A stretch of 49,615 nucleotides of DNA, taken from assembly GCA_944364445.1 (NCBI GenBank), contig CALVWC010000002.1, forward strand, positions 1 through 49,615, given 5' to 3'. The notes beneath the pieces are model-generated. The model had not been told where the DNA came from, ran no database searches, and saw only the letters and a list, made by a program, of their open reading frames with translations. Position 1 is the first letter of the stretch. Each line of letters starts with the position of its first letter. A program made the position numbers and the translations under genes. Shown one piece after another: positions 4,675 through 45,734 of the stretch. Source of the stretch: an uncultured Clostridia bacterium (GTDB taxonomy: Bacteria; Bacillota; Clostridia; Christensenellales; UBA1242).

Positions 4675-6723
4675 TTAAATTTTTTCGGCAACTTCCCAAG
4701 CACGCCAAACAACTGTTCTAAGGTTGCCAACGCCGTTTGCATCGCCAACCACATACACTTTTTTGGTGGCAAGAGGGTTAGGGTTATAGCCGATTGCACT
4801 GATGACCGAGTCGGCTTTAAGTTGTTTCTTTTCGCCATTTTTAAGTGCGATCATAACATTGTCTTTATTAATTTCCAAAACCTTGCTTTCAAGATAGGTT
4901 GGCACTTTGTTGAGTTTGAAGAAATCTCTTAAATATGAAGAGTTTGCAAGGCAAAGTGTTTTTGAAACCATAAGGTCGTTTTGCGCCTCAACAATGGTTG
5001 GATTTTTGCCTTTAAGATATAGGTCATAGGCAATTTCGCAACCACTGAGTCCGCCACCAATAATCACAACATTTTTGCCAACAGGTTTGGTTTCGTTCAA
5101 ATATTCCACCGCTTCCACACATCTTTCAGCACCTTTGACTTTCAAGGTTTTAGGTTTTGAGCCAGTGGCAACCACAACAACATCCGCTTTGACATCTTTA
5201 ATATCTTTGATTTCTGTGTTAAATTTAACTTCTATTGGAAGTTTGGCAATTTGCCTGCGATACCACTCAATAAGCATCTTATCTTTTTCCTTAAAAGAAG
5301 GAGCGGCAGCGGCAATGAACACACCTCCAAGTTTATCCGATTTTTCATAGATTGTCACTTTGTGGCCTCTTAATGTTGCTATTCTTGCCACTTCAATTCC
5401 GCCAACACCGCCACCGATGACTGCCACAGTTTTTGATTTTTTTGCTGGCACGATGTCGAATTTGTGGTTTTGCATGGTGATTGGGTTTAATGCACAACGG
5501 CTCATATGTGCAGAGTCGTTGATTGAGGCGGCATTTGCCACACCTTTATAGTGCGAAAGAGGAAAACATCCGTTATGGCAACAAATGCAAGGCAAAATAT
5601 CCTCTTCCCTTCCTTCTATAAGTTTGGTTATCCAGTGATTATCAGTTAAAAATTGCCTTGCCACGCCCATACCGTCGATTTTACCTTCAGAAATGGCTTT
5701 TGAAGCGGTGTCTGGTTCCATTCTTCCAGCGCAGACAACAGGAATATCAACAAATTTTTTGATATGAGCAACATCTTCAAGGTTGCAGTTCTTTGGCATA
5801 TATGCAGGAGGGTGTGCCCAATACCATGCATCATATGTTCCGTTGTCGGCGTTTAGCATGTCGTAGCCTGCGTCTTGAAGATATTTTGCTGCCTTTTCGC
5901 TCTCTTCCATATCACGCCCAACTTCCGTGAATTTTTCGCCCGGCATCGCACCTTCACAGAAACCTTTGGTTTTGCTGACAACAGAGTATCTAAGTGAAAC
6001 TGGATAATCTTTTCCACACGCTTCTTTAATCGCTTTCACAACATCTGTGGCAAAGCGGTAGCGGTTTTCAAAACTTCCGCCATATTCGTCCGTTCTCTTA
6101 TTTGTGTAGGCGGTGGTGAATTGGTCAAGAAGATAACCCTCGTGAACGGCGTGAACTTCCACACCATCAACGCCAGCCTCTTTGCATAGTTTGGCAGTTT
6201 TTGCAAAGCCTTCCACCATTTTTTCAATTTCTTTTTTAGTAAGTGCGCGAGTGTAAACTCCTTCCGCCCAACGAGCAGGAAGTTTGCTTGGAGAAGCACA
6301 GATATATGAAAGATTGAAAATTGGTTTAATAAGAGCGCCAAGCGCTGGATGTTTCACCATTGGCACAAGTTTGTCTGGAATGGAGAAAGAACGACCAAAA
6401 CCAGCGGTCAATTGCACAAAAAGTTTTGCACCAGTTTTGTGAATTTCTTCCATATATGGTTTAAGTTTTTTGAAACTTTTTTTGCTTTTATAAAGCCATT
6501 GTCCGCCCATTAAGTTTCTTAAGGGTGCAATTCCCGGAATGATTAAACCCACATTGTTCTTAGCGGTTTCCAAGAAGAACTCGGCGGCGTCTTTATCAAA
6601 ATGATGAGGTTCCATCCAGCCAAAAAGTGATGTTCCACCCATTGGGCAAAGCACAATTCTGTTTTTTATTTCCACTTTTCCTATCTTCCAAGGTGTGAAA
6701 AGTGAAGCGTATTTTTTATCCAT
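4675..6723 (-). CDS. NADH:flavin oxidoreductase, Old-Yellow-Enzyme/2,4-dienoyl-CoA reductase (enoate reductase-like) family
   Basis: N-terminal OYE-like TIM barrel (CPMGG, HAVHEGYLLDQF), a central CICCHNGC Fe-S motif, and a C-terminal Rossmann segment VAVIGGGVGGIEVA...GG plus VVIIGGGLSG. Confidence 0.85.
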   Translation of the reverse strand: MDKKYASLFTPWKIGKVEIKNRIVLCPMGGTSLFGWMEPHHFDKDAAEFFLETAKNNVGLIIPGIAPLRNLMGGQWLYKSKKSFKKLKPYMEEIHKTGAKLFVQLTAGFGRSFSIPDKLVPMVKHPALGALIKPIFNLSYICASPSKLPARWAEGVYTRALTKKEIEKMVEGFAKTAKLCKEAGVDGVEVHAVHEGYLLDQFTTAYTNKRTDEYGGSFENRYRFATDVVKAIKEACGKDYPVSLRYSVVSKTKGFCEGAMPGEKFTEVGRDMEESEKAAKYLQDAGYDMLNADNGTYDAWYWAHPPAYMPKNCNLEDVAHIKKFVDIPVVCAGRMEPDTASKAISEGKIDGMGVARQFLTDNHWITKLIEGREEDILPCICCHNGCFPLSHYKGVANAASINDSAHMSRCALNPITMQNHKFDIVPAKKSKTVAVIGGGVGGIEVARIATLRGHKVTIYEKSDKLGGVFIAAAAPSFKEKDKMLIEWYRRQIAKLPIEVKFNTEIKDIKDVKADVVVVATGSKPKTLKVKGAERCVEAVEYLNETKPVGKNVVIIGGGLSGCEIAYDLYLKGKNPTIVEAQNDLMVSKTLCLANSSYLRDFFKLNKVPTYLESKVLEINKDNVMIALKNGEKKQLKADSVISAIGYNPNPLATKKVYVVGDANGVGNLRTVVWRAWEVAEKI

Positions 6724-37203: not shown

Positions 37204-37250
37204 TGGTGGACTGCCAGGGGCTCGAACCCTGTACCCATTGATTAAGAGTC
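37204..37250 (-). pseudogene. orphan 3' portion of a tRNA-Lys(CUU) gene (positions about 30-76); left att-type repeat of the island
   Basis: The reverse complement reads GACTCTTAATCAATGGGTACAGGGTTCGAGCCCCTGGCAGTCCACCA. It matches the intact tRNA-Lys at 45477..45552 over the T arm (20 nt identical) and the anticodon loop (11 nt identical). Confidence 0.8.
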
Positions 37251-37443: not shown

Positions 37444-38757
37444 TTAATCTATATTAAATCTACTATTTAAAGTTTCGCCTATAAGTTTTGCTCGTTCCTT
37501 TTTCTTTTCTGCGAAAATGTTTGCGTAATATCTTTCAGTAGTTTTTATGCTTTCATGCCCTAGATACTGCTTTACCTCATATAAGTCCATACCCATATCA
37601 ATTAGATTTGAAGCACAGGTATGCCTTAAATCATGCCACCTTGTATGAGGCTGAAAATTACACTTTTTTAGTAGTTTGTTGTAAGTGTGAGATAAATAAC
37701 TTGGTGTTATTAAACTTCCATCTTCATGCCTAAAAATAGGGTTAAATTCCATTATACCTTTTTTGTCTTGTAAGTTATAAGGTATAGAAAAAATCTTATT
37801 ATTTTCTTTCCATAAACTTTTATCTTGGCTTTTTACATAATTTTTTATCATGTTAGCAAATTGCTTTGGCATAAAGATTTCTCTCTGTTCGTTTGATTTT
37901 GTATTATTTATAAAGGCTTCATTTTCATTGTTATAATCTAAACTTTTTGATATTAAAACCTTATTCTTTTCAAAATCAAAATCGGCAAGTTCTAATGCAC
38001 ATAATTCGCCACGCCTTACACCTAAATACAAAGAACTTAGCCAAGGCATTTCAAGTTTTTTATAAAAACTTTCAGGCGGATTTTTTATTATCTCTAATAT
38101 TTTCTTTTGTTGTTCAGGTTCTAAAATGGTTATTGGTTTTTTAGGAATAACTACTTGCAGTTTAAAAGTGTCCTTATCAAACTTGTTATACTTAGCTGGG
38201 TTTTTCTCTTTATACACCTTTTCATAGATTGCTAGGTCAAAAATAGGTGATAAAAATTTTGAATAGTGGCTGATAGTATTTTCAGTTCGTCCTTTTGCTC
38301 TTAAATGTTTATAAAAGCTTAAAATATCTTGTTGAGTTATCTCGGTTATCTTTTTATTTTTGAAAAACTTTTCTAAAACATTTACATTTGACTTATAGCC
38401 TCGTTTGGTGTTTGAACGATTTTTCTCACTTTTAATACTTAAATATCTCTCTGCATATTCTTTTAAAGTGTATTCAAATAGTTCTTTACTTTCTACTTGC
38501 AATTTACTTTCATATTCCATTATAAAATCTTTCAGTTTTTGAATGCAGATTTCAGTTGCTTTCGTTAAGTTTCCTTTTTCGTTTAAACCTGTGCTTAACC
38601 ATTTTGGAGTGCTTTTGTGCTTCTCGTGATTGTAATAGTAAAAGTATCCATAATACATTTTATTGGTTTCATTTATGAATATTTTAAGATTAAAAAGTTT
38701 ATTTTCATTGTTTACTTTTACTGATACACTCAATGTTTTACTTTTGTTTTCTTTCAT
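37444..38757 (-). CDS. int: tyrosine-type site-specific integrase
   Basis: C-terminal catalytic motifs (GVRRGEL..L, HDLRHTCASNLI, LGHESIKTTERYY). Adjacent to the att repeat. Confidence 0.92.
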   Translation of the reverse strand: MKENKSKTLSVSVKVNNENKLFNLKIFINETNKMYYGYFYYYNHEKHKSTPKWLSTGLNEKGNLTKATEICIQKLKDFIMEYESKLQVESKELFEYTLKEYAERYLSIKSEKNRSNTKRGYKSNVNVLEKFFKNKKITEITQQDILSFYKHLRAKGRTENTISHYSKFLSPIFDLAIYEKVYKEKNPAKYNKFDKDTFKLQVVIPKKPITILEPEQQKKILEIIKNPPESFYKKLEMPWLSSLYLGVRRGELCALELADFDFEKNKVLISKSLDYNNENEAFINNTKSNEQREIFMPKQFANMIKNYVKSQDKSLWKENNKIFSIPYNLQDKKGIMEFNPIFRHEDGSLITPSYLSHTYNKLLKKCNFQPHTRWHDLRHTCASNLIDMGMDLYEVKQYLGHESIKTTERYYANIFAEKKKERAKLIGETLNSRFNID

Positions 38758-38761
38758 TTGC

Positions 38762-38971
38762 TCACTCCTTTGAGTTATTCATTGTTTGGCTATTTATGTA
38801 AGTGATTAGTTCACTCTTCATAATTCGCCATTGACGACCTATTTTAAAACTTTTGATTGCTCCACTTTGTAAAAGGCTGTAAGCGAATGTTCTTTTAATG
38901 TTCAATAAAAGACACAAATCTTCAAAAGTTAAGATGTCGCCATAATCTTCTAATTTTGCTTTGTTTCTCAT
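38762..38971 (-). CDS. xis: excisionase-family / MerR-like helix-turn-helix DNA-binding protein
   Basis: LTFEDLCLLLNIKRTFAYSLLQSGAIKSFKIGRQWRI resembles excisionase-type HTH_17. Preferred ATG at 38971 follows GGAGAAGGAG. Lies immediately upstream of int. Confidence 0.7.
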   Translation of the reverse strand: MRNKAKLEDYGDILTFEDLCLLLNIKRTFAYSLLQSGAIKSFKIGRQWRIMKSELITYINSQTMNNSKE

Positions 38972-39250
38972 GACTCCTTCTCCCTTTTTTCGGGACGACA
39001 TCTCATAACTAATCATACGGATTTCTCTGCAAAAACCAAGTCTTAGCATAAAAATTTATAATGATTTTCTATGAATAGTCCCTGACTTTTGTTTTAGTAT
39101 TAGACACTGTTGATGTATCTTTTATTCCTTTGTGTTAGTTGATTACTAATGTAAATCAGTTTTTGAAACTATTTTTAAAAAAATTCACCTCCTTTATTTT
39201 AGTTTCATATATATTTTACTTGGCACCAAAAATTTCTTTTTTGCTATATT

Positions 39251-39270
39251 ACATGACATGTAATTTTTAG
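39251..39270 (-). promoter_or_regulatory. candidate operator, copy 1 (ACATGACATGTAATTTTTAG), upstream of xis-int
   Basis: Near-identical to 41744-41762. Contains the palindrome ATTACATG-A-CATGTAAT (39248-39264). Confidence 0.45.
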
Positions 39271-39311: not shown

Positions 39312-39337
39312 AGGAACCACTATAAAAAATGGTTCCT
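39312..39337 (-). terminator. hairpin terminator of the cargo operon
   Basis: AGGAACCA-loop-TGGTTCCT, 40 nt downstream of the stop at 39379. Followed on the minus strand by ATATTTTT. Confidence 0.65.
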
Positions 39338-39378: not shown

Positions 39379-39855
39379 TTATTTTTGATTTTGTAAACTT
39401 ATATAGATGTCCGCTATACTTTCAGTATCATTATCTTTAATTGTTAAACTTAATTTCTTAGCCACATCATGCAATCTATAACTATTGAGTTTTAAATTTT
39501 CTTTTGCCATGTTTAAAACATCAATATTTTTATTTTTAATCTTTGTAAAACGACTTAAAACAGGAATATCAAAGTTTTGCGAGTTGTAGCCGATAAGTAG
39601 ATATCTTTTTATAAATCTCTTTAATTTTTTGATTGCTTGCGTTAATTGTGGGGCAGAGTCTAAGTCTTTTTGATTTATATTAAGAATGTTTAATATTTCG
39701 TTATCTAAATGTTTATTAGGATTTATAAAAGTTGAAAACCTTTCTTTTACTTTTTGATTTTTATATTTAATAGCGTCTATCTTTACTAACTCACAAGTGT
39801 TTATATCTACACTTGTGGTTTCTATATTGAATGCTATAAATTTATGATGTTTCAT
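39379..39855 (-). CDS. DEDD (DnaQ-like) 3'-5' exonuclease-fold protein with non-canonical catalytic positions
   Basis: Exo I-like FNIETT (Asn where Asp is expected), Exo II-like GYNSQNFDIPVL, and no clear Exo III H-x4-D. RBS AAAGGAG. Confidence 0.65.
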   Translation of the reverse strand: MKHHKFIAFNIETTSVDINTCELVKIDAIKYKNQKVKERFSTFINPNKHLDNEILNILNINQKDLDSAPQLTQAIKKLKRFIKRYLLIGYNSQNFDIPVLSRFTKIKNKNIDVLNMAKENLKLNSYRLHDVAKKLSLTIKDNDTESIADIYISLQNQK

Positions 39856-39866
39856 TTAACACTCCT

Positions 39867-40442
39867 TTATCTTAAAATAATTATAAGAATAACTACAATT
39901 GCTATTACGACGATAAATGAGAATAAAACTACCTTTTTAATTTTTCTATTTTTAGTCTTTTTTGCCTCAATATAACACTTTTCAATATAATCTTTGGTAT
40001 AGTTCTCTTCAAGTGCTATATAAGCATTCATTTTATCTATACAAGGCTTCAAAGTATTATTGCTTATTTGGTTTAATTTGGATTTGAACTCTTCTATTTT
40101 TTGCAAGGACTGATTAGCAATAGGATTATAATAAGGCATAAAATACCCATTATGATTAGTTGGTATTTCATTGCATATTAAGGGAATTAAAACTTGTAAT
40201 TCTTCTTCATTTTTCTTTTCGATTTCTTTAAGATAATCTAAAATTTCATTAGGAGTAAATGAAAATGATTGAGTTTTGCGATTTGCTTTATCTTCATGCT
40301 TTAAAAAGTATTCATATAAGGCTTTTGCTCTTTTATCTTCTGGGTATTTCAAATAAGCCTCTAAACTTAATTTAGATGCCACTCCATTTTTTGATATTTT
40401 GGCATTATCATATATAAGAGATATATATTTTTCTAATTCCAT
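39867..40442 (-). CDS. hypothetical protein with C-terminal transmembrane anchor
   Basis: Soluble helical region of about 165 aa, then KKVVLFSFIVVIAIVVILIIIL. Its start overlaps the upstream stop (TAATG). Confidence 0.55.
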   Translation of the reverse strand: MELEKYISLIYDNAKISKNGVASKLSLEAYLKYPEDKRAKALYEYFLKHEDKANRKTQSFSFTPNEILDYLKEIEKKNEEELQVLIPLICNEIPTNHNGYFMPYYNPIANQSLQKIEEFKSKLNQISNNTLKPCIDKMNAYIALEENYTKDYIEKCYIEAKKTKNRKIKKVVLFSFIVVIAIVVILIIILR

Positions 40443-41662
40443 TATTGCCTCGAATGTTTTCTTATTAACTCTATTAAGTTTTGATTATTTAAAATATTGT
40501 CAATATTGTCATCACATGAAAGAACGATTTCTCTTTCTTCTACTAAAAGTTTTTGTAATAATTGAAAAAACTTATCTTGTTCATTTAATTTATTTTTTAA
40601 AAACTGAATATCTGTAATTATGATAAGTTTATAACCCATATATTCATGAACCATTTCCCAGGTTAAGCCTTTACAGAGCATAAGGTCATTGCAAAATTGT
40701 TCGCATGTTATATTTAATATTTGTTCTTTTGAAAACGATTTCGCTAACTTATTTATTTGGGATTTTAAGTTTTTTGCACTATCATTTAAAATTGTAATGC
40801 TCTTATTTTGATAAGTGTGTCGTCTTATTAAATCTATTGCCCATTTTTCTGCTTTTTCATCATTGATAACTATTTCTTGACAGCGAGCAGGGACTTTATA
40901 TTGTCCTAACTCATCAAAACCTTTCTTATCATCTAAACTTTTATATGAGGTTTTGCAACCACTCAATTCTTTAACTTTCCAAGAAGTCTTATTTGTATTA
41001 TCATTATCTCTATCGGTCAAGTTTAAACTTACTGTATAGTCTAATATTCCATAACCTTTTAAATTATTATCAAAGGAGCAGATATCTTTTGCAATATAAA
41101 TCGTATTGTTTTTTATATCTTTATATTTTTTCTTGTTCCAATGTGGTTGATATTTAAGCCATGGATATTTCTTTTTTAATTTCTTTCTTTCAGACCTATT
41201 TAGTGTTTCAGGCTTAATAATTTCTCCAATTTGCATATAGCCCCAAATAACATGCTTGCCTTGCTTTGTAATTTTATTCTCACTGATAAGATTACAATAG
41301 GAGCCATAAAATAAGAATAAATCTCCAACTTTTACAGAATTATTTTCTAAGTGTGTTTGAAAGCCTTCAATCTGTCCTAGGCTGCCTTTAAAGTTTTTAC
41401 AATTAAAATAATTTTCTAGTTGTGGGTCTAGGTGGCAATGCGTTTTAAGAAAAGACTTGTATTTTCCAGCCTCATCACTTTTCATAACTTTTGTGAAAGA
41501 TTTTATATAACTCTCTATATTACCATATTTCAATTTATCGAATTTGTCTGGGATTGGAACGAATTCAATTTTTGTTGTTTTATCATGCCCGATAGGTATA
41601 GGTAGCAAGCACAATGATTTAAAACTACTATCTAAACCTTTTTTACTTAAAATGACTTTCAT
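40442..41662 (-). CDS. fusion protein: uncharacterised N-terminal domain (possibly Nmad3-like) plus truncated DnaA-like AAA+ core with degenerate Walker A
   Basis: N-terminus: MKVILSKKGLDSS...CHLDPQL...LGQ...HL...VKVGDLFLFYG...HVIWGYMQIGEI. C-terminus (aa 283-406): ITCEQFCNDL...YKLIIITDIQFLKNKLNEQDKFFQLLQKLLVEEREIVLSCD, which aligns by eye to DnaA domain III. Confidence 0.6.
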   Translation of the reverse strand: MKVILSKKGLDSSFKSLCLLPIPIGHDKTTKIEFVPIPDKFDKLKYGNIESYIKSFTKVMKSDEAGKYKSFLKTHCHLDPQLENYFNCKNFKGSLGQIEGFQTHLENNSVKVGDLFLFYGSYCNLISENKITKQGKHVIWGYMQIGEIIKPETLNRSERKKLKKKYPWLKYQPHWNKKKYKDIKNNTIYIAKDICSFDNNLKGYGILDYTVSLNLTDRDNDNTNKTSWKVKELSGCKTSYKSLDDKKGFDELGQYKVPARCQEIVINDEKAEKWAIDLIRRHTYQNKSITILNDSAKNLKSQINKLAKSFSKEQILNITCEQFCNDLMLCKGLTWEMVHEYMGYKLIIITDIQFLKNKLNEQDKFFQLLQKLLVEEREIVLSCDDNIDNILNNQNLIELIRKHSRQ

Positions 41663-41743
41663 AATTACACCTCACTTGTAAGAATAATATCATAAAATGT
41701 ATTTTTATGCAAGAAAATGCACTTATAAATGCAAATTATCTTT

Positions 41744-41762
41744 CATGTCATGTAATTTTTAC
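41744..41762 (-). promoter_or_regulatory. candidate operator, copy 2 (CATGTCATGTAATTTTTAC), in the divergent cargo-operon/XRE control region
   Basis: 18 of 19 nt identical to copy 1. On the minus strand it sits in the spacer of a plausible TTGTAA-18-GATAAT promoter. Confidence 0.45.
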
Positions 41763-41820
41763 AAGTTTTATGAAAGGGAGTGCAAGCCTATTGTCAATTA
41801 TAATTTGTATGAGGTGTAAA

Positions 41821-42129
41821 ATGAATAAAGATGATGTAGTTTTAAGAATAAGTCAAGCGAGAAATAGGGCAGGGCTTTCTGCTCGTGATTTAAGTTTAAA
41901 AATAGAAAAGAATGAGGCTTACATATCAAGGTTAGAGTCTAAAAAAGGTAGTTTTGAGCCATCAGTTTCTGCCTTACTTAATATTATTTCGGTTTGCGGA
42001 ATGAGTGAGTGCGAATTCTTTTATTATGACTTAAATCAATATGATAAAGATAAACAGTTGATTGAACTTTTGAGAAAAGTTAAACCTGAGATTAAAGACT
42101 TAATGATTGCATTATTAAAAAAGATATAA
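41821..42129 (+). CDS. XRE-family repressor of the island
   Basis: HTH (RNRAGLSARDLSLKIEKNEAYISRLES). ATG at 41821 follows GAGGTG. Divergent from the cargo operon. Confidence 0.8.
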   Translation: MNKDDVVLRISQARNRAGLSARDLSLKIEKNEAYISRLESKKGSFEPSVSALLNIISVCGMSECEFFYYDLNQYDKDKQLIELLRKVKPEIKDLMIALLKKI

Positions 42130-42193: not shown

Positions 42194-42238
42194 GTATTCT
42201 AACTTAATTGATAATAAATCAATTAAGTTGTAGAATAC
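42194..42238. terminator. long hairpin between the convergent XRE and primase-helicase genes
   Basis: GTATTCTAACTTAATTGAT-AATAA-ATCAATTAAGTTGTAGAATAC (one 2-nt bulge). Confidence 0.6.
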
Positions 42239-44100
42239 TAACCCTGATTGAATAGGTTAGTGTTGGTTTCTTCAATCTCTTTATAAAGATTATATGCAGG
42301 GAAAAATTCATAGAATATACTTTCGCCAGCAAGTCCAAATCTATTTTTTAAAAGTATGAGTTCAATCTCTCTTGGATTTTGTTTTTTGGCTAAATCTATG
42401 TCAAAATCTTTTCCTGTGTTTTTGTATTGCATGCCTAAAACTACTTCTGCCGAGAACTCAATGCCACCACTTTCTTTAATACTTTGCATTGATATCTTTT
42501 GAGTGTAGGCATCACGATTGATTGAACTGATTAAAATAATAGGCACTTCAAATTCTTTTATACACTTTTTCATTAAAGCCATAAGTTTGTCCATGTTTTG
42601 TTTATCACTGAAAGAGTCATTTAAAGAAGAGATAAGTTGCATATAATCCACAATAACCACAGGCTTTTTATTCCTTTCCTGTATGTGCTTTTTAATCGTA
42701 TTATAAATATCTAATGCGGTTATTCCATTATTATTTTCAACCACAAAAATATTATTTGCATATTTTCGATAGTTATCTTTTGCTCGGCTTATCACATTCA
42801 TTTCATGCTCTGAATAACTAACATAATGATATGGATTAGAAATCTCGCTTGTGCTTTTTCGGTTAACTGATGGTTCTGTTTCCGCTATAATTCTTGATAA
42901 AGACTTGGCTATTAGTTGATACTTTGACATTTCAAGCGAAAAGATTAAAACATCACTGCCTTGCTTTGCTGTGTAATCGGCTATCTGCATGGTGAAAGTA
43001 GTTTTGCCTAGTGAAGATATAGCACATAAGACATAGATATATGCTCTTAAACCGCCGTCTAACATTTTATCTAACTGATTAAAACCTGTTGAAAGCGGTT
43101 TTGAGTTTTTATTTTTCTCAATATAATTTTCAAAATCAGTCAAAGCATGATAGTTATTAAGTTTATTATATTCGCTTTCTTCTGCTTGTTTCTGCTTGTT
43201 TTGATTTTTCTCTTTCAATATCATATCAACTATACTATGGGCTTGTTTTGAAAAGTTTTCAGCCGATTTCATAAACATTTCGTTAGGGTCTTTATAAATT
43301 CCTAAATCAAAACTTTTCGGCTCTTTAAAGCCTAATTCAATAAGTTTCGCATATAGTTTCTTTTGCTGTGTTTTTCCTGTTTCGTCATTATCAAGAGCTA
43401 AAACAAAAGTAATATTCTTATCTTTGAAAGTGCTAAATATAAGGTTTATATTTTCAGCACTACGCAGACCGACAGCATGAACTCCAATCTGTTCAAAACT
43501 CATAGCGTCAAACTCACCCTCACATACAAAACAATAATCTAGGCAAGTTTTGGCTGACGCCACTTGCCAGTTAAATAACTTAGTTTCTTCCTTTCCATTA
43601 TTCTTTTTATACACTCTTTTATCTTTATCATTTTCTAAATTTCTAATAGTGTATTGCACAGCACTTACAGGTATAACTAGATTACCATACTCACTTGCAT
43701 AGCCAAGTTTAAATCTTTTAATAGTATCTAAATTAAAACCTCTTGAAAAAATAAAACTCTTAGCCTTTTCATCATCTAGTAACGACTCATGCCAATAATC
43801 AAACTTAGTCTTATCTTTGATTTGAGTAGGGAGATATAACTCGCATGCTCTTTTATATGCCTCTTTTTCATTCAAGTTTTCTTTAAATCTTATTAGATTG
43901 AATAAGTCATAATATTGACCACATGCATGACAGTATATCGCCTTTTTATTCTCATAAAATGTAGCACTAGGATGTTTATCTAAATGATTTGGATTAGGGC
44001 AGGTGTATTGTTTTTTATCTATTAAACTCTCACCGAAATTTCCTTGATAATAATCTTTGATAAAAGATTTTAAATTTTCAGTTATTGCATCGTTTTTCAT
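42238..44100 (-). CDS. bifunctional DNA primase / DnaB-like replicative helicase
   Basis: CHC2 zinc finger (CPNPNHLDKHPS...CHACG), Toprim (CEGEFDAMS, ALDNDETGK), and a DnaB/RecA-like C-terminus (SSLGKTTF Walker A, VVIVDYMQLI Walker B). Confidence 0.88.
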   Translation of the reverse strand: MKNDAITENLKSFIKDYYQGNFGESLIDKKQYTCPNPNHLDKHPSATFYENKKAIYCHACGQYYDLFNLIRFKENLNEKEAYKRACELYLPTQIKDKTKFDYWHESLLDDEKAKSFIFSRGFNLDTIKRFKLGYASEYGNLVIPVSAVQYTIRNLENDKDKRVYKKNNGKEETKLFNWQVASAKTCLDYCFVCEGEFDAMSFEQIGVHAVGLRSAENINLIFSTFKDKNITFVLALDNDETGKTQQKKLYAKLIELGFKEPKSFDLGIYKDPNEMFMKSAENFSKQAHSIVDMILKEKNQNKQKQAEESEYNKLNNYHALTDFENYIEKNKNSKPLSTGFNQLDKMLDGGLRAYIYVLCAISSLGKTTFTMQIADYTAKQGSDVLIFSLEMSKYQLIAKSLSRIIAETEPSVNRKSTSEISNPYHYVSYSEHEMNVISRAKDNYRKYANNIFVVENNNGITALDIYNTIKKHIQERNKKPVVIVDYMQLISSLNDSFSDKQNMDKLMALMKKCIKEFEVPIILISSINRDAYTQKISMQSIKESGGIEFSAEVVLGMQYKNTGKDFDIDLAKKQNPREIELILLKNRFGLAGESIFYEFFPAYNLYKEIEETNTNLFNQG

Positions 44101-44151
44101 ATTTTATTCACTCCTATATAATTTTATTTTTTTAAGATTTATTTTATATTT

Positions 44152-44267
44152 TGACGGCTGGCGTAAGCCGTCAAGCCGTCAAGATTATTATTAAGCCTTA
44201 GGGCTTAATTCTTAAAGACTTTTTTTAGATTTATTAACACCTTTAAAGCCTTGTATTTAAAGGTGTT
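44152..44267. other. cluster of three perfect hairpins plus a tandem AGCCGTCA repeat (candidate ori / single-strand initiation region)
   Basis: TGACGGCT/AGCCGTCA (44152-44173) with a second AGCCGTCA at 44174-44181. TTAAGCC/GGCTTAA (44191-44208). A 12-bp AACACCTTTAAA/TTTAAAGGTGTT (44236-44267). Confidence 0.5.
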
Positions 44268-44334
44268 TAGCCTTTTTAATCTTTCGTAAAATAAAACCGA
44301 TTAGTATCGTTTGAATATTGTTAGAGTTTGCTTT

Positions 44335-45279
44335 TCAGGGTGGACGGATTTCATTTTTTGTGTTCTCATCGGTTGGTATCGTTTCTTCAACTTTTCCTAA
44401 CTCTATTTTGCTGTTGTGTGCTGACTTTTTGAAAGAAAAGTGCATTTTTAGTTCTAAAAATTGATATAAACTTATTTTCTTTAAGTGTTGTTTAGTGTTA
44501 TTTAAGTCCACTAAATACCAATCAATGATATTAGATAATCTTTTCATATCTCGCATGAAAGGATTTATTATTCTTTGATTTGTTTGTCCTGCTTTTTTGA
44601 TTTCTGTATAGTTTTTAGGTATATCAGGGCAATAGTCTAAAAGAGTTCTTATTAAGATATTATTCACTCTTTCGGGCTTGTTTCGATTAATATTATTTAG
44701 ATATGATAAAGCCCATAAAATGTAAAAAGAGTTGGGGTTTAAGTGGGTGTCTATCCTAAAAATTTCAGTTGATAAAATCATTTTAGGAAAGGTGTTGTAA
44801 AGTTGTATAAAATCTTCGTTTAAGATTATTTGTATTTCGCCATTTGAAAATTTTGTATAACTGCTAAAAATATTCATTTTAAAGGTGTCTATTACTGGCT
44901 TTTTATCTTTACCTATCTTGTTATAATTTCTATCTTTAAAACCTATATGAAAACTTAAAAGGCTGCTTAAATCTTGATTTATCTTTCTTCTTGCACTTAC
45001 AGGGTTAGATATGTTTCTAAGTTCCATATAATCTTTAAGTGGAATATTGATAGTTCGATATTCTTTTGTAAGGCTTAATGCACTTGCTTTCACTAAAATG
45101 AAAATAAATAGTTGTAGTGTTGACGGCTTTAAATTTAATTCTTTCGATTTGTCGAGAATAAAATAAAATTCGTTTGTGCCTATTGTTTCTTTAAGGTTAT
45201 CTACCTTATATAAATTTTTGTTAAAAGTGATTAAGTTGTTGATTACATTTTTTTGTTTAATTTCTACATATTCGTCCAT
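44335..45279 (-). CDS. putative replication initiator / DNA-binding protein of the island
   Basis: 314-aa ORF (ATG 45279 follows GGAG by 6 nt), upstream of the primase-helicase. The call rests on position only; no motif was recognised with certainty. Confidence 0.4.
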   Translation of the reverse strand: MDEYVEIKQKNVINNLITFNKNLYKVDNLKETIGTNEFYFILDKSKELNLKPSTLQLFIFILVKASALSLTKEYRTINIPLKDYMELRNISNPVSARRKINQDLSSLLSFHIGFKDRNYNKIGKDKKPVIDTFKMNIFSSYTKFSNGEIQIILNEDFIQLYNTFPKMILSTEIFRIDTHLNPNSFYILWALSYLNNINRNKPERVNNILIRTLLDYCPDIPKNYTEIKKAGQTNQRIINPFMRDMKRLSNIIDWYLVDLNNTKQHLKKISLYQFLELKMHFSFKKSAHNSKIELGKVEETIPTDENTKNEIRPP

Positions 45280-45426
45280 AAAAATCTCCATTTTTTATAA
45301 ATTTTTTTGATTTTTATCTTCGAACATAGAAAACTGCATAGAAAAATGATATTTACACTTTCTGTAAACACCTTATAATCTCAAAAAATTTTTATTTTCT
45401 ATGGTTTAATTTTGTGTAATACATAG

Positions 45427-45476: not shown

Positions 45477-45552
45477 TGGTGGATTGCCAGGGGCTCGAAC
45501 CCTGGACCCTTCGATTAAGAGTCGAATGCTCTACCAACTGAGCTAGCAATCC
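45477..45552 (-). tRNA. tRNA-Lys (anticodon CUU), CCA encoded
   Basis: Hand fold: acceptor GGATTGC/GCAATCC, D arm GCTCAGTTGGTAGAGC, anticodon stem TTCGA/TCGAA with loop CTCTTAA, T arm CAGGG-TTCGAGC-CCCTG, ACCA. Confidence 0.92.
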
Positions 45553-45582: not shown

Positions 45583-45622
45583 GATTAAGAGTCTCGTGCT
45601 CTACCAACTGAGCTAGCAGTCC
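45583..45622 (-). pseudogene. orphan 5' portion of a second tRNA-Lys(CUU) gene (positions 1-40)
   Basis: The reverse complement reads GGACTGCTAGCTCAGTTGGTAGAGCACGAGACTCTTAATC, then diverges into non-tRNA sequence. Its acceptor strand GGACTGC is complementary to GCAGTCC of the orphan 3' piece at 37208-37214. Confidence 0.75.
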
Positions 45623-45734
45623 ATATGACTTTCATTGCGTTACAATTTCGGCTAATTTTTCAACTTTTCTCTATTTTACTTAAATTTTGTGGAAAAGTTG
45701 TTAATTTTTTAGCGTGCAATAAAAAACTATGTGT

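Follow-up and report, generated by a model that had tools for sequence, protein, structure and literature searches.

A Truncated DnaA Core Lacking Its ATP Site, Fused to an Intact Nmad3 Domain in a Repressor-Controlled Island Cassette

Introduction

Several described systems stand close to the gene considered in this paper, which lies in a 49,615-nucleotide stretch of DNA from an uncultured Clostridia bacterium (contig CALVWC010000002.1 of assembly GCA_944364445.1; we call the whole stretch the window) and which encodes a protein of two parts: an Nmad3 domain and a remnant of the replication initiator DnaA. Hda acts by AAA+-to-AAA+ contact with DnaA, and it has a nucleotide site, an essential arginine finger and a clamp-binding motif. 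McrB joins an EVE/YTH-like reader to an AAA+ GTPase motor and works with a partner nuclease, McrC, of the PD-(D/E)xK type. More generally, inactive (pseudo-ATPase) AAA+ subunits usually co-assemble with active relatives. Mobile elements, for their part, are known to target DnaA, as the prophage proteins YqaH (bioRxiv 10.1101/2020.11.18.388090) and YfdR (PMC4776307) do.

What, then, is a piece of DnaA doing on a mobile island, behind a domain of quite another family? Both domains belong to known families, and Hda already shows that paralogs of DnaA can serve as regulators. The combination is another matter. Here an intact Nmad3 domain is followed, in one protein, by a core derived from DnaA domain III that is without a P-loop, a Walker B pair, an arginine finger or a lid, and the gene opens a repressor-controlled cassette of three genes carried as island cargo. 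Below, P-numbers denote protein sequence clusters, and L-numbers denote contigs that carry relatives of the fusion protein.

Results

The fusion gene runs from 40442 to 41662 on the minus strand, a complete open reading frame (ORF) of 406 amino acids, stop codon included, that is defined by the ORF list and by Pfam matches to both Nmad3 and Bac_DnaA. An AlphaFold2 model of the whole protein has a mean predicted local distance difference test score (pLDDT) of 89.7 and a predicted template modeling score (pTM) of 0.88. The Nmad3 domain (residues 1–268; 40859–41662, minus strand, as are all coordinates within the gene) was delimited with Pfam PF18754 and an alignment of 100 sequences; its C-terminal helix in the model (residues 269–283, KAEKWAIDLIRRHTY; 40814–40858) serves as the linker and is the best-conserved stretch among the fusions, with invariant columns from K270 to R281. 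Then comes the DnaA-derived AAA+ core (residues 286–383; 40514–40807), whose limits follow from Pfam, TIGRFAM, hhalign, Foldseek and the secondary structure of the model.

That the C-terminal third is a homolog of DnaA domain III can be stated plainly. Pfam Bac_DnaA (PF00308) matches residues 299–390 over positions 51–144 of its 162 (38.7 bits vs a cut-off of 23; the E-value is 1.5e-9 with the full-length query and 1.6e-10 when the C-terminal piece is searched by itself). NCBIfam TIGR00362, the DnaA model, matches over its positions 159–247 (E=5.9e-10); the score of 38.8 bits is far short of the 343.9 required of an equivalog, and the protein is thus a homolog only. A phmmer search of all PDB sequences returned DnaA chains only (2hcb, 1l8q, 8bv3, 8btg and 2z4r), and an exhaustive phmmer search with the last 137 amino acids against 1.84 billion (1.84e9) representative proteins returned, at E<1e-3 and besides the close clusters P0005 and P0002 and two artifacts, 26 canonical DnaA proteins. 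(The artifacts, P0122 and P0123, ranked directly after P0005 and P0002 and were rejected as repeat proteins.) Aligned as profiles by hhalign, four fusion C-termini and 17 DnaA segments agree with a probability of 98.8% and E=8.4e-17 over 86 columns (residues 303–388). In a Foldseek comparison of the model with the PDB, the top match is domain III of Bacillus subtilis DnaA (8bv3_A; E=1.4e-5, root-mean-square deviation 3.0 Å, 120 columns), followed by the 8btg origin-opening complex, Aquifex aeolicus DnaA, and then Hda, IstB, DnaI and DnaC. Identity to canonical DnaA is 30–39% over about 80 amino acids. Because profile, phmmer, hhalign and fold searches agree, the homology lies far beyond chance.

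These searches bear directly on a first-pass annotation of this DNA, which had aligned residues 283–406 by eye with DnaA domain III of the Bacillus type. The ORF list places these residues at 40445–40816, exactly where that annotation had put them; phmmer against the PDB reproduces the alignment, and the profile match to PF00308 and the fold match to 8bv3_A point the same way. It had also described a degenerate Walker A motif, a threonine in place of the first Walker B aspartate and a protein that ends near box VII with the lid and domain IV missing, and all three descriptions stand: the Walker A segment is a glycine-free NDSAK with no overlooked intact P-loop anywhere in the protein, the Walker B segment reads LIIITD, and the chain stops at residue 406, 16 amino acids past the Pfam match. 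Its tentative identification of the N-terminal part as Nmad3 is borne out by PF18754 (below).

Could the fragment instead derive from the helicase loaders of the same clade? It is without an ATP site, its N-terminus is Nmad3, and the IstB_IS21 profile reaches only E=0.04, under its cut-off, so the DnaC/DnaI/IstB description does not fit. One joint MAFFT alignment of full-length fusions with DnaA placed Walker B on Nmad3 residue 216; we discarded it in favor of separate domain alignments.

The model shows how much of the DnaA core has been kept and where it has been cut. Strand β1 (SITIL, residues 289–293) leads into the P-loop remnant, a five-residue NDSAK loop between β1 and helix α1 (residues 294–298; 40769–40783), where DnaA has GxxGxGKT; hhalign cannot align this region of the fusions to DnaA at all. 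Helix α1 (residues 299–307) and β2 (residues 315–319) follow, and then two helices (residues 320–328 and 335–342) that align with the initiator-specific motif of DnaA. Strand β3 (LIIIT, residues 346–350) carries the Walker B remnant (residues 346–351; 40610–40627, located from alignments), in which the query has TD and the clusters P0002, P0003 and P0015 have ND, KS and TS. The IQFL segment (residues 352–355), a long helix (residues 359–374) and β4 (EIVLSC, residues 378–383) complete the core, and two short helices (residues 384–406; 40445–40513) replace, by alignment, the DnaA boxes VI and VII. Since the protein ends so soon beyond the Pfam match, there is no β5, no lid (sensor II) and no domain IV; domains I and II are absent as well. 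The box VII/arginine-finger segment is unconserved among the fusions, with no conserved arginine, and in P0015 a genuine stop codon directly after β4 removes it altogether, leaving β1–β4 only. The contrast with the canonical DnaA matches of the exhaustive search is sharp: all of them have a DD[IVL][QH] Walker B segment, and every one examined that spans the P-loop region has an intact GxxGxGK[TS].

Four residues—F323, Q353, F354 and K358—are invariant across all fusions and across the 17 canonical DnaA segments, and L355 is invariant in the fusions and is L, F or I in those segments. Three of these four and L355 fall within IQFLKNK (residues 352–358; 40589–40609), a segment located from the invariant columns of the alignments. 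At what we take to be the position of R227, the AID-1 arginine of Escherichia coli DnaA, the fusion has M342. K358 aligns with Lys222 of B. subtilis DnaA, an essential residue that hydrogen-bonds the phosphate backbone of the single-stranded DNA (ssDNA) of the DnaA-trio strand (PMC10721633). When the strand-engaging residues named in that paper are mapped on the fusion, E183 is retained as E321, N187 as N325 (except in P0003) and I190 corresponds to M328, a position that is hydrophobic in every fusion; R202 (V338) and E228 (K364) are lost, and I193 lies within a two-residue deletion, so that three of the eight DnaA-trio-engaging residues are gone.

None of this looks like decay. The Nei-Gojobori ratio of nonsynonymous to synonymous substitution rates (dN/dS), taken against the 84% and 65% relatives, is 0.28–0.30 for the DnaA part and 0.19 for Nmad3: the DnaA-derived domain is under purifying selection. 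With intact ORFs in several lineages, this ratio of about 0.3 rules out a decaying pseudogene remnant.

The other half of the protein is a full Nmad3 domain. PF18754 matches residues 2–246 (E=1.4e-35; 123.6 bits vs a cut-off of 27), and all 15 columns that are invariant in the 100-sequence family alignment are present in the query (S6, K8, G9, D11, P36, H77, G96, L105, F118, P173, H174, L215, W228, Q262 and E263). Modeled alone, the domain has a pLDDT of 89.9. Its top Foldseek matches are weak ones: the N-terminal domain of Thermococcus gammatolerans McrB (6p0f), the THYN1 EVE domain bound to DNA containing 5-methylcytosine, PH1033 and MJECL36, along with viral ASCH domains from BFVD (E >= 0.1). 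Pfam EVE matches 7 of the 100 Nmad3 members, weakly (best 0.013), and is the sole other family that recurs. These matches are below significance and yet coherent, and they offer the lead that Nmad3 may be a PUA/EVE-like reader barrel with a conserved polar site.

Stand-alone Nmad3 genes keep suggestive company. They adjoin HEPN_AbiU2, GmrSD with a methylase, HNH with Dcm, and, at the end of a prophage, AbiJ-NTD4 with ABC-3C components; in small islands with an unrelated rolling-circle Rep, a stand-alone Nmad3 gene sits next to a divergent HTH_3 gene in the same position as the fusion does here. An Nmad2-Nmad3 fusion occurs in P0098, and Nmad2 is part of an experimentally validated defense system of the DefensePredictor study (PMC13092281). 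A separate observation concerns L010–L012, where an FtsH-like AAA/M41 protease gene, a 106-amino-acid ORF and a WYL-WCX regulator gene precede a stand-alone Nmad3 gene, an arrangement that may be a distinct multi-gene Nmad3 system. Our literature search found no mention of Nmad3 or of PF18754.

How common is the fusion? The whole protein has 435 homologs, about 430 of which are stand-alone Nmad3 proteins of about 280 amino acids; fusions are limited to P0001 (99% identical), P0002 (84%), P0003 (65%) and P0015 (38%). Among the 1.84 billion representative proteins, the DnaA-derived module is found in this island lineage only, and canonical DnaA comes next. Neither the fusion nor its C-terminal module turned up in pattern scans of GTDB species genomes and of IMG/VR; the scans of JGI metagenomes gave one further copy of the same island only. 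In 50,697 phage genomes, the whole fusion protein has no match, and stand-alone Nmad3 is absent there too; six large plasmids carry Nmad3, in the stand-alone form only. Against PHROGs, the fusion has a marginal 34-amino-acid match and nothing else.

Two contigs complicate this census. P0121 was at one point a candidate for a stand-alone DnaA-like module and was rejected, being the 3′ half of a fusion gene that is split in contig L002, where a duplication of about 73 bp (L002, approximately 4737–4749; window 41024–41109) yields a 225-amino-acid Nmad3 ORF and a 174-amino-acid ORF. In P0005 (L001, 1–2838), the same DnaA-derived module is preceded, in one reading frame, by a ParB-like N-terminal domain; this gene lies behind an SNF2-helicase gene and ahead of the same two downstream genes. 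The L001 junction (1219/1220) is abrupt: DNA identity to the window sets in at 40857, within the final helix of Nmad3. This single 2.8-kb metagenomic contig reflects either a genuine exchange of domains or a chimeric assembly.

The fusion gene does not travel alone. Its stop codon overlaps the ATG of the next gene (ATGA), which encodes a 191-amino-acid protein with a C-terminal hydrophobic anchor (39867–40442, minus strand; tail-anchored) and for which we found no significant family match, only sub-threshold Pfam matches and PHROG matches of unassigned function. After an 11-nt gap comes the gene for a 158-amino-acid DEDDh/PolC-exonuclease-like protein (39379–39855, minus strand), and the cassette closes with a terminator-like hairpin and T-run (39312–39337, minus strand). 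The 158-amino-acid protein matches Pfam RNase_T (1.2e-14) and the PolC exonuclease 2p1j in the PDB (5.6e-12), and PADLOC assigns it to a generic Cas-associated DEDDh model. Yet its catalytic residues look compromised: the Exo I aspartate is Asn10 in all copies (FNIETT; niETT vs dfETT in 2p1j), so that N-I-E replaces D-x-E; the Exo III histidine is absent, judged by motif spacing; and the last aspartate, D149, is asparagine in L003. It may thus be a pseudo-exonuclease. It is also confined to three clusters among 5.8 billion proteins and is better conserved than the fusion (85–96% vs 65–84%). In other words, with a degenerate DnaA core and a degenerate DEDDh protein, the operon holds two replication-protein homologs, both seemingly catalytically dead.

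Divergent from the cassette lies a cI/Xre-type helix-turn-helix (HTH) regulator gene (41707–42129, plus strand; Pfam HTH_3 and PHROG repressors), called at 140 amino acids. Its true start is likely the ATG at 41821 behind GAGGTG, which gives 102 amino acids, in agreement with the 99–102 amino acids of regulators beside other Nmad3 genes, and which would leave a divergent promoter region of 158 nt. The HTH gene divergent from Nmad3 is kept in L003, L004, L005, L006–9 and L097. A 25-nt operator-like element with the palindrome TTACATGxCATGTAA (41737–41761) lies on a promoter-like site of the cassette (minus strand, 41764–41735), and a second copy (39245–39269, found as a 25-nt repeat) lies upstream of the genes for an HTH_17 excisionase-like protein (95 amino acids) and a tyrosine integrase (437 amino acids), both identified by Pfam (together 37444–39049, minus strand). 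The same palindrome in both places suggests that the cI-like repressor controls the cassette and the xis-int genes together.

All of this is housed in an island of 8.3 kb at a transfer RNA (tRNA) gene, tRNA-Lys. The island is bounded by 47-nt direct repeats, 91% identical: the repeat at the integrase end (37204–37250) is a copy of the 3′ half of tRNA-Lys, and the other (45477–45523) is the 3′ half of the tRNA-Lys(CTT) gene itself. Homology of the window with L002 stops at 37204. Separately, 70 nt past the tRNA gene, a 44-nt stretch (45583–45626) repeats part of tRNA-Lys with 91% identity; ARAGORN does not call it as a tRNA, and it may have been left by an earlier integration or by a second tRNA.

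Beyond the HTH gene lies the island's replication module (42238–45291, minus strand; Pfam, PHROG): a 620-amino-acid fusion of primase and DnaB-like helicase (Pfam Zn_ribbon_DnaG, Toprim_2 and DnaB_C; PHROG DNA primase/helicase) and, upstream of it, a 318-amino-acid protein (44335–45291, minus strand) with no match in Pfam, PHROGs or PADLOC. Read along the minus strand, the order is therefore the 318-amino-acid protein, primase-helicase, HTH (on the opposite strand), fusion, 191-amino-acid protein, DEDDh-like protein, hairpin, HTH_17 and integrase, and this order recurs on at least 21 metagenomic contigs, with differing integrase-side flanks in several. The integrase, the master repressor, the island's own primase/helicase, the attachment (att) repeats and a size of <15 kb are traits like those of phage-inducible chromosomal islands; among the island ORFs, there is no match to terS or to capsid or morphogenesis genes, the 318- and 191-amino-acid ORFs being unannotated.

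The cassette is not tied to the replication genes of the island. In L003 (4331–6843), the HTH gene, a fusion (65%) and a DEDDh gene (85%) lie in another host, whose RplM is only 59% identical, flanked by rplM-rpsI on one side and truA on the other, without integrase, excisionase, primase-helicase or the 191-amino-acid membrane protein. DNA identity between the L003 and window copies of the HTH gene is 98%, and identity to the window is a mosaic of 98%, 83%, 90% and 95% in successive segments. The HTH-fusion pair is also present in L097, with the divergent relative P0015.

A DnaA-box-dependent origin in the island was considered and rejected: it has two DnaA-box-like sites vs about 2.4 expected by chance, and no cluster. 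As an observation in its own right, the whole window has 36 sites within one mismatch of the DnaA box TTATCCACA vs 14 expected, a count that 0 of 100 shuffles reached; they are densest at 17.8–24.1 kb, mostly in the host part of the window, and the window as a whole has no dnaA gene and no GC-skew switch.

Discussion

With its ATP motifs, its lid and the other DnaA domains lost, the DnaA part should be unable to initiate replication, hydrolyze ATP or load a helicase. Selection has kept it nonetheless, and so we ask: what might a DnaA core be good for once it can no longer do what DnaA does? We propose, tentatively and with a probability that we would put at roughly 40%, that it has become a module for docking or assembly that works without nucleotide and that targets or gates Nmad3 during a conflict at the level of replication.

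In such a scheme, the module would dock, independently of ATP, on DnaA-type AAA+ assemblies, on ssDNA or on both, through a surface made of the retained initiator-specific motif and the Lys222-equivalent K358. Docking would target or gate Nmad3, the predicted EVE/PUA-like reader of nucleic acids or nucleotides. The cassette would be switched on, along with xis-int, once the repressor is relieved, and it would act at the level of DNA replication in a conflict of the island or the host with an infecting phage. The docking step is supported by the invariance of F323, Q353, F354 and K358 through DnaA and by purifying selection on the domain; the conflict role is supported by the stand-alone Nmad3 genes found among defense genes and by Nmad2, a fusion partner of Nmad3 that belongs to a validated defense system.

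Several points weigh against this proposal, and they should be kept together. Residues for DnaA-DnaA contact or base capture are lost (the arginine finger, the R227 equivalent, R202, E228 and I193), and the DnaA-type or ssDNA partner of the module is, at this point, a candidate only. We know of no activity assigned to the Nmad3 family, and the comparison of its domain with PDB and BFVD yielded no significant structural neighbor (best E 0.13). PADLOC v2, which is without a model for Nmad3, gave no meaningful match for the fusion or for the 191-amino-acid protein. The apparent co-regulation with xis-int could just as well mean that the cassette serves the life cycle of the island itself and not defense. 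Finally, the lineage is tiny—four sequence clusters and one possibly chimeric contig, from gut-metagenome islands only—and the conservation statistics are thin as a result.

The first-pass annotation had imagined that the fragment caps, poisons or senses DnaA filaments, which is plausible, if weakly supported; it did so without the context given here (the repressor-controlled cassette, the degenerate DEDDh protein, the copies away from the island's replication genes and the defense-gene neighbors). In its sharpest form, the idea is that the dead DnaA core caps or poisons host DnaA-ATP filaments at oriC and so stops or retimes initiation upon island induction. We consider this unlikely, though several points speak for it. 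DnaA is the best of the AAA+ families for this domain (Pfam 1e-10 vs 0.04 for IstB), Foldseek ranks DnaA above Hda, IstB, DnaI and DnaC, purifying selection acts on the domain (dN/dS about 0.3), and the phosphate-contacting Lys222 equivalent K358 is invariant; the habits of pseudo-ATPase AAA+ subunits and the precedents of YqaH and YfdR count for it as well. The difficulty is with the surfaces that a cap would need. The box VII/arginine-finger segment is unconserved, and absent in P0015; the presumed equivalent of R227 (AID-1) is methionine; three of the eight trio-engaging residues are lost; and there is no nucleotide pocket for a neighbor's arginine finger. A cap would also leave the intact Nmad3 domain and the degenerate exonuclease unexplained.

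Alternatively, one might read the whole operon as a guard, in which the DnaA-like and DEDDh-like proteins imitate host replication proteins and are bait for phage factors directed against DnaA or the polymerase proofreader, and in which taking the bait triggers Nmad3, the membrane protein or both. It is easy to see the appeal, with two different catalytically degenerate replication homologs in one operon, one of them (the DEDDh protein) better conserved than the fusion despite its catalytic losses, and with defense-type neighbors around the relatives of Nmad3. If L001 is real, the N-terminal domain has even been swapped for a ParB-like one before the same C-terminal module; but L001 may be a chimera, the exonuclease might stay active with Asn at Exo I, the case is drawn entirely from context, and we know of no phage trigger. 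We find this reading quite doubtful.

We are just as hesitant about a broader version, in which the dead DnaA core and the dead proofreading-exonuclease homolog, both captured from cellular genes, would form a replication-mimicry module: either decoys that sense phage factors aimed at the host replisome or dominant-negatives that jam the initiation and elongation of a helper phage, with Nmad3, the membrane protein or both as the output.

Perhaps, though, replication has nothing to do with it, and the DnaA fold was simply co-opted to help Nmad3 oligomerize or to stabilize it, and is unconnected with DnaA, ssDNA or replication. Most functional DnaA residues are gone, after all, P0015 retains β1–β4 only, and nearly all Nmad3 homologs (about 430 of 435) manage without a DnaA-derived domain. 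A mere scaffold, however, would hardly be expected to hold surface K358 and the Q353/F354 of the IQFL segment invariant all the way back to DnaA, to be under purifying selection and to co-occur with a second replication-protein homolog, and we give this explanation little credence too.

Least likely of all is an accessory part in the island's own replication, as a helicase loader or co-initiator that assists its primase-helicase, for although 576 bp separate the fusion gene from that for the primase-DnaB-like helicase and the DnaA/DnaC/DnaI clade includes helicase loaders, the module is ATPase-dead, the helicase gene lies beyond the repressor gene in a separate transcription unit, the island has no DnaA-box cluster, the cassette persists without the primase-helicase in another host (L003), and a stand-alone Nmad3 takes the same position in islands with the unrelated rolling-circle Rep.

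Why should so small a family matter? We know of no description of a mobile element that keeps, under selection, a DnaA fragment without its catalytic motifs, joined to a candidate conflict domain and beside a degenerate proofreading-exonuclease homolog, and of none in which mobile elements use fragments of an initiator protein as decoys or dominant-negatives. Should the module prove to bind DnaA-type assemblies or the unwound DNA of an origin, it would offer a minimal natural probe of the ATP-independent interaction surfaces of DnaA domain III, an example of satellites or defense cassettes interfering with the initiation of replication and the first functional handle on Nmad3, a family of hundreds (435 homologs here). 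The scope is a very narrow lineage, from gut-metagenome islands only, and the role is one that we infer from sequence and model.

Comparison with Known Systems

Set beside DnaA domain III itself (B. subtilis 8bv3 and 8btg; A. aeolicus 2hcb and 3r8f), the fusion has a homologous α/β core of β1–β4 that includes the two-helix initiator-specific motif, and it has the IQFLxxK segment with the Lys222 equivalent, the xxFF helix and the IVLSxD strand. Unlike DnaA, it is without the P-loop, the Walker B pair, the arginine finger, β5, the lid/sensor II and domains I, II and IV, and the module sits behind Nmad3, encoded on a mobile island. With Hda (3bos, 3sc3 and 5x06), the second-best structural class in Foldseek (E about 1e-4), it shares being a short DnaA-related AAA+ protein that is no initiator, whereas the nucleotide site, the arginine finger and the clamp-binding motif of Hda (the last judged by eye from the sequence) are missing from it.

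In its N-terminal part, the protein resembles stand-alone Nmad3 (PF18754, about 280 amino acids), of which it is a full family member, down to the divergent HTH pairing and the residence in small integrative islands; the stand-alone proteins, however, have no DnaA-derived domain and no DEDDh-like gene downstream. The architecture as a whole calls to mind, by analogy, restriction of the McrB type: an N-terminal PUA-like reader (here a candidate, the similarity of Nmad3 to EVE being under significance), a C-terminal AAA+ domain and an operon partner with a nuclease fold. The differences are that the AAA+ domain of the fusion is DnaA-derived, truncated and inactive and that its partner has a DEDDh fold with degenerate catalytic residues.

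A further parallel is with YqaH of the B. subtilis skin element, YfdR of an E. coli cryptic prophage and ORF104 of phage 77, which binds DnaI (5he9). Like the gene described here, these are mobile-element genes under Xre/cI-type repression. Those binders act on the host initiation machinery and are small proteins unrelated to DnaA, whereas here the candidate binder would be a fragment of DnaA itself.

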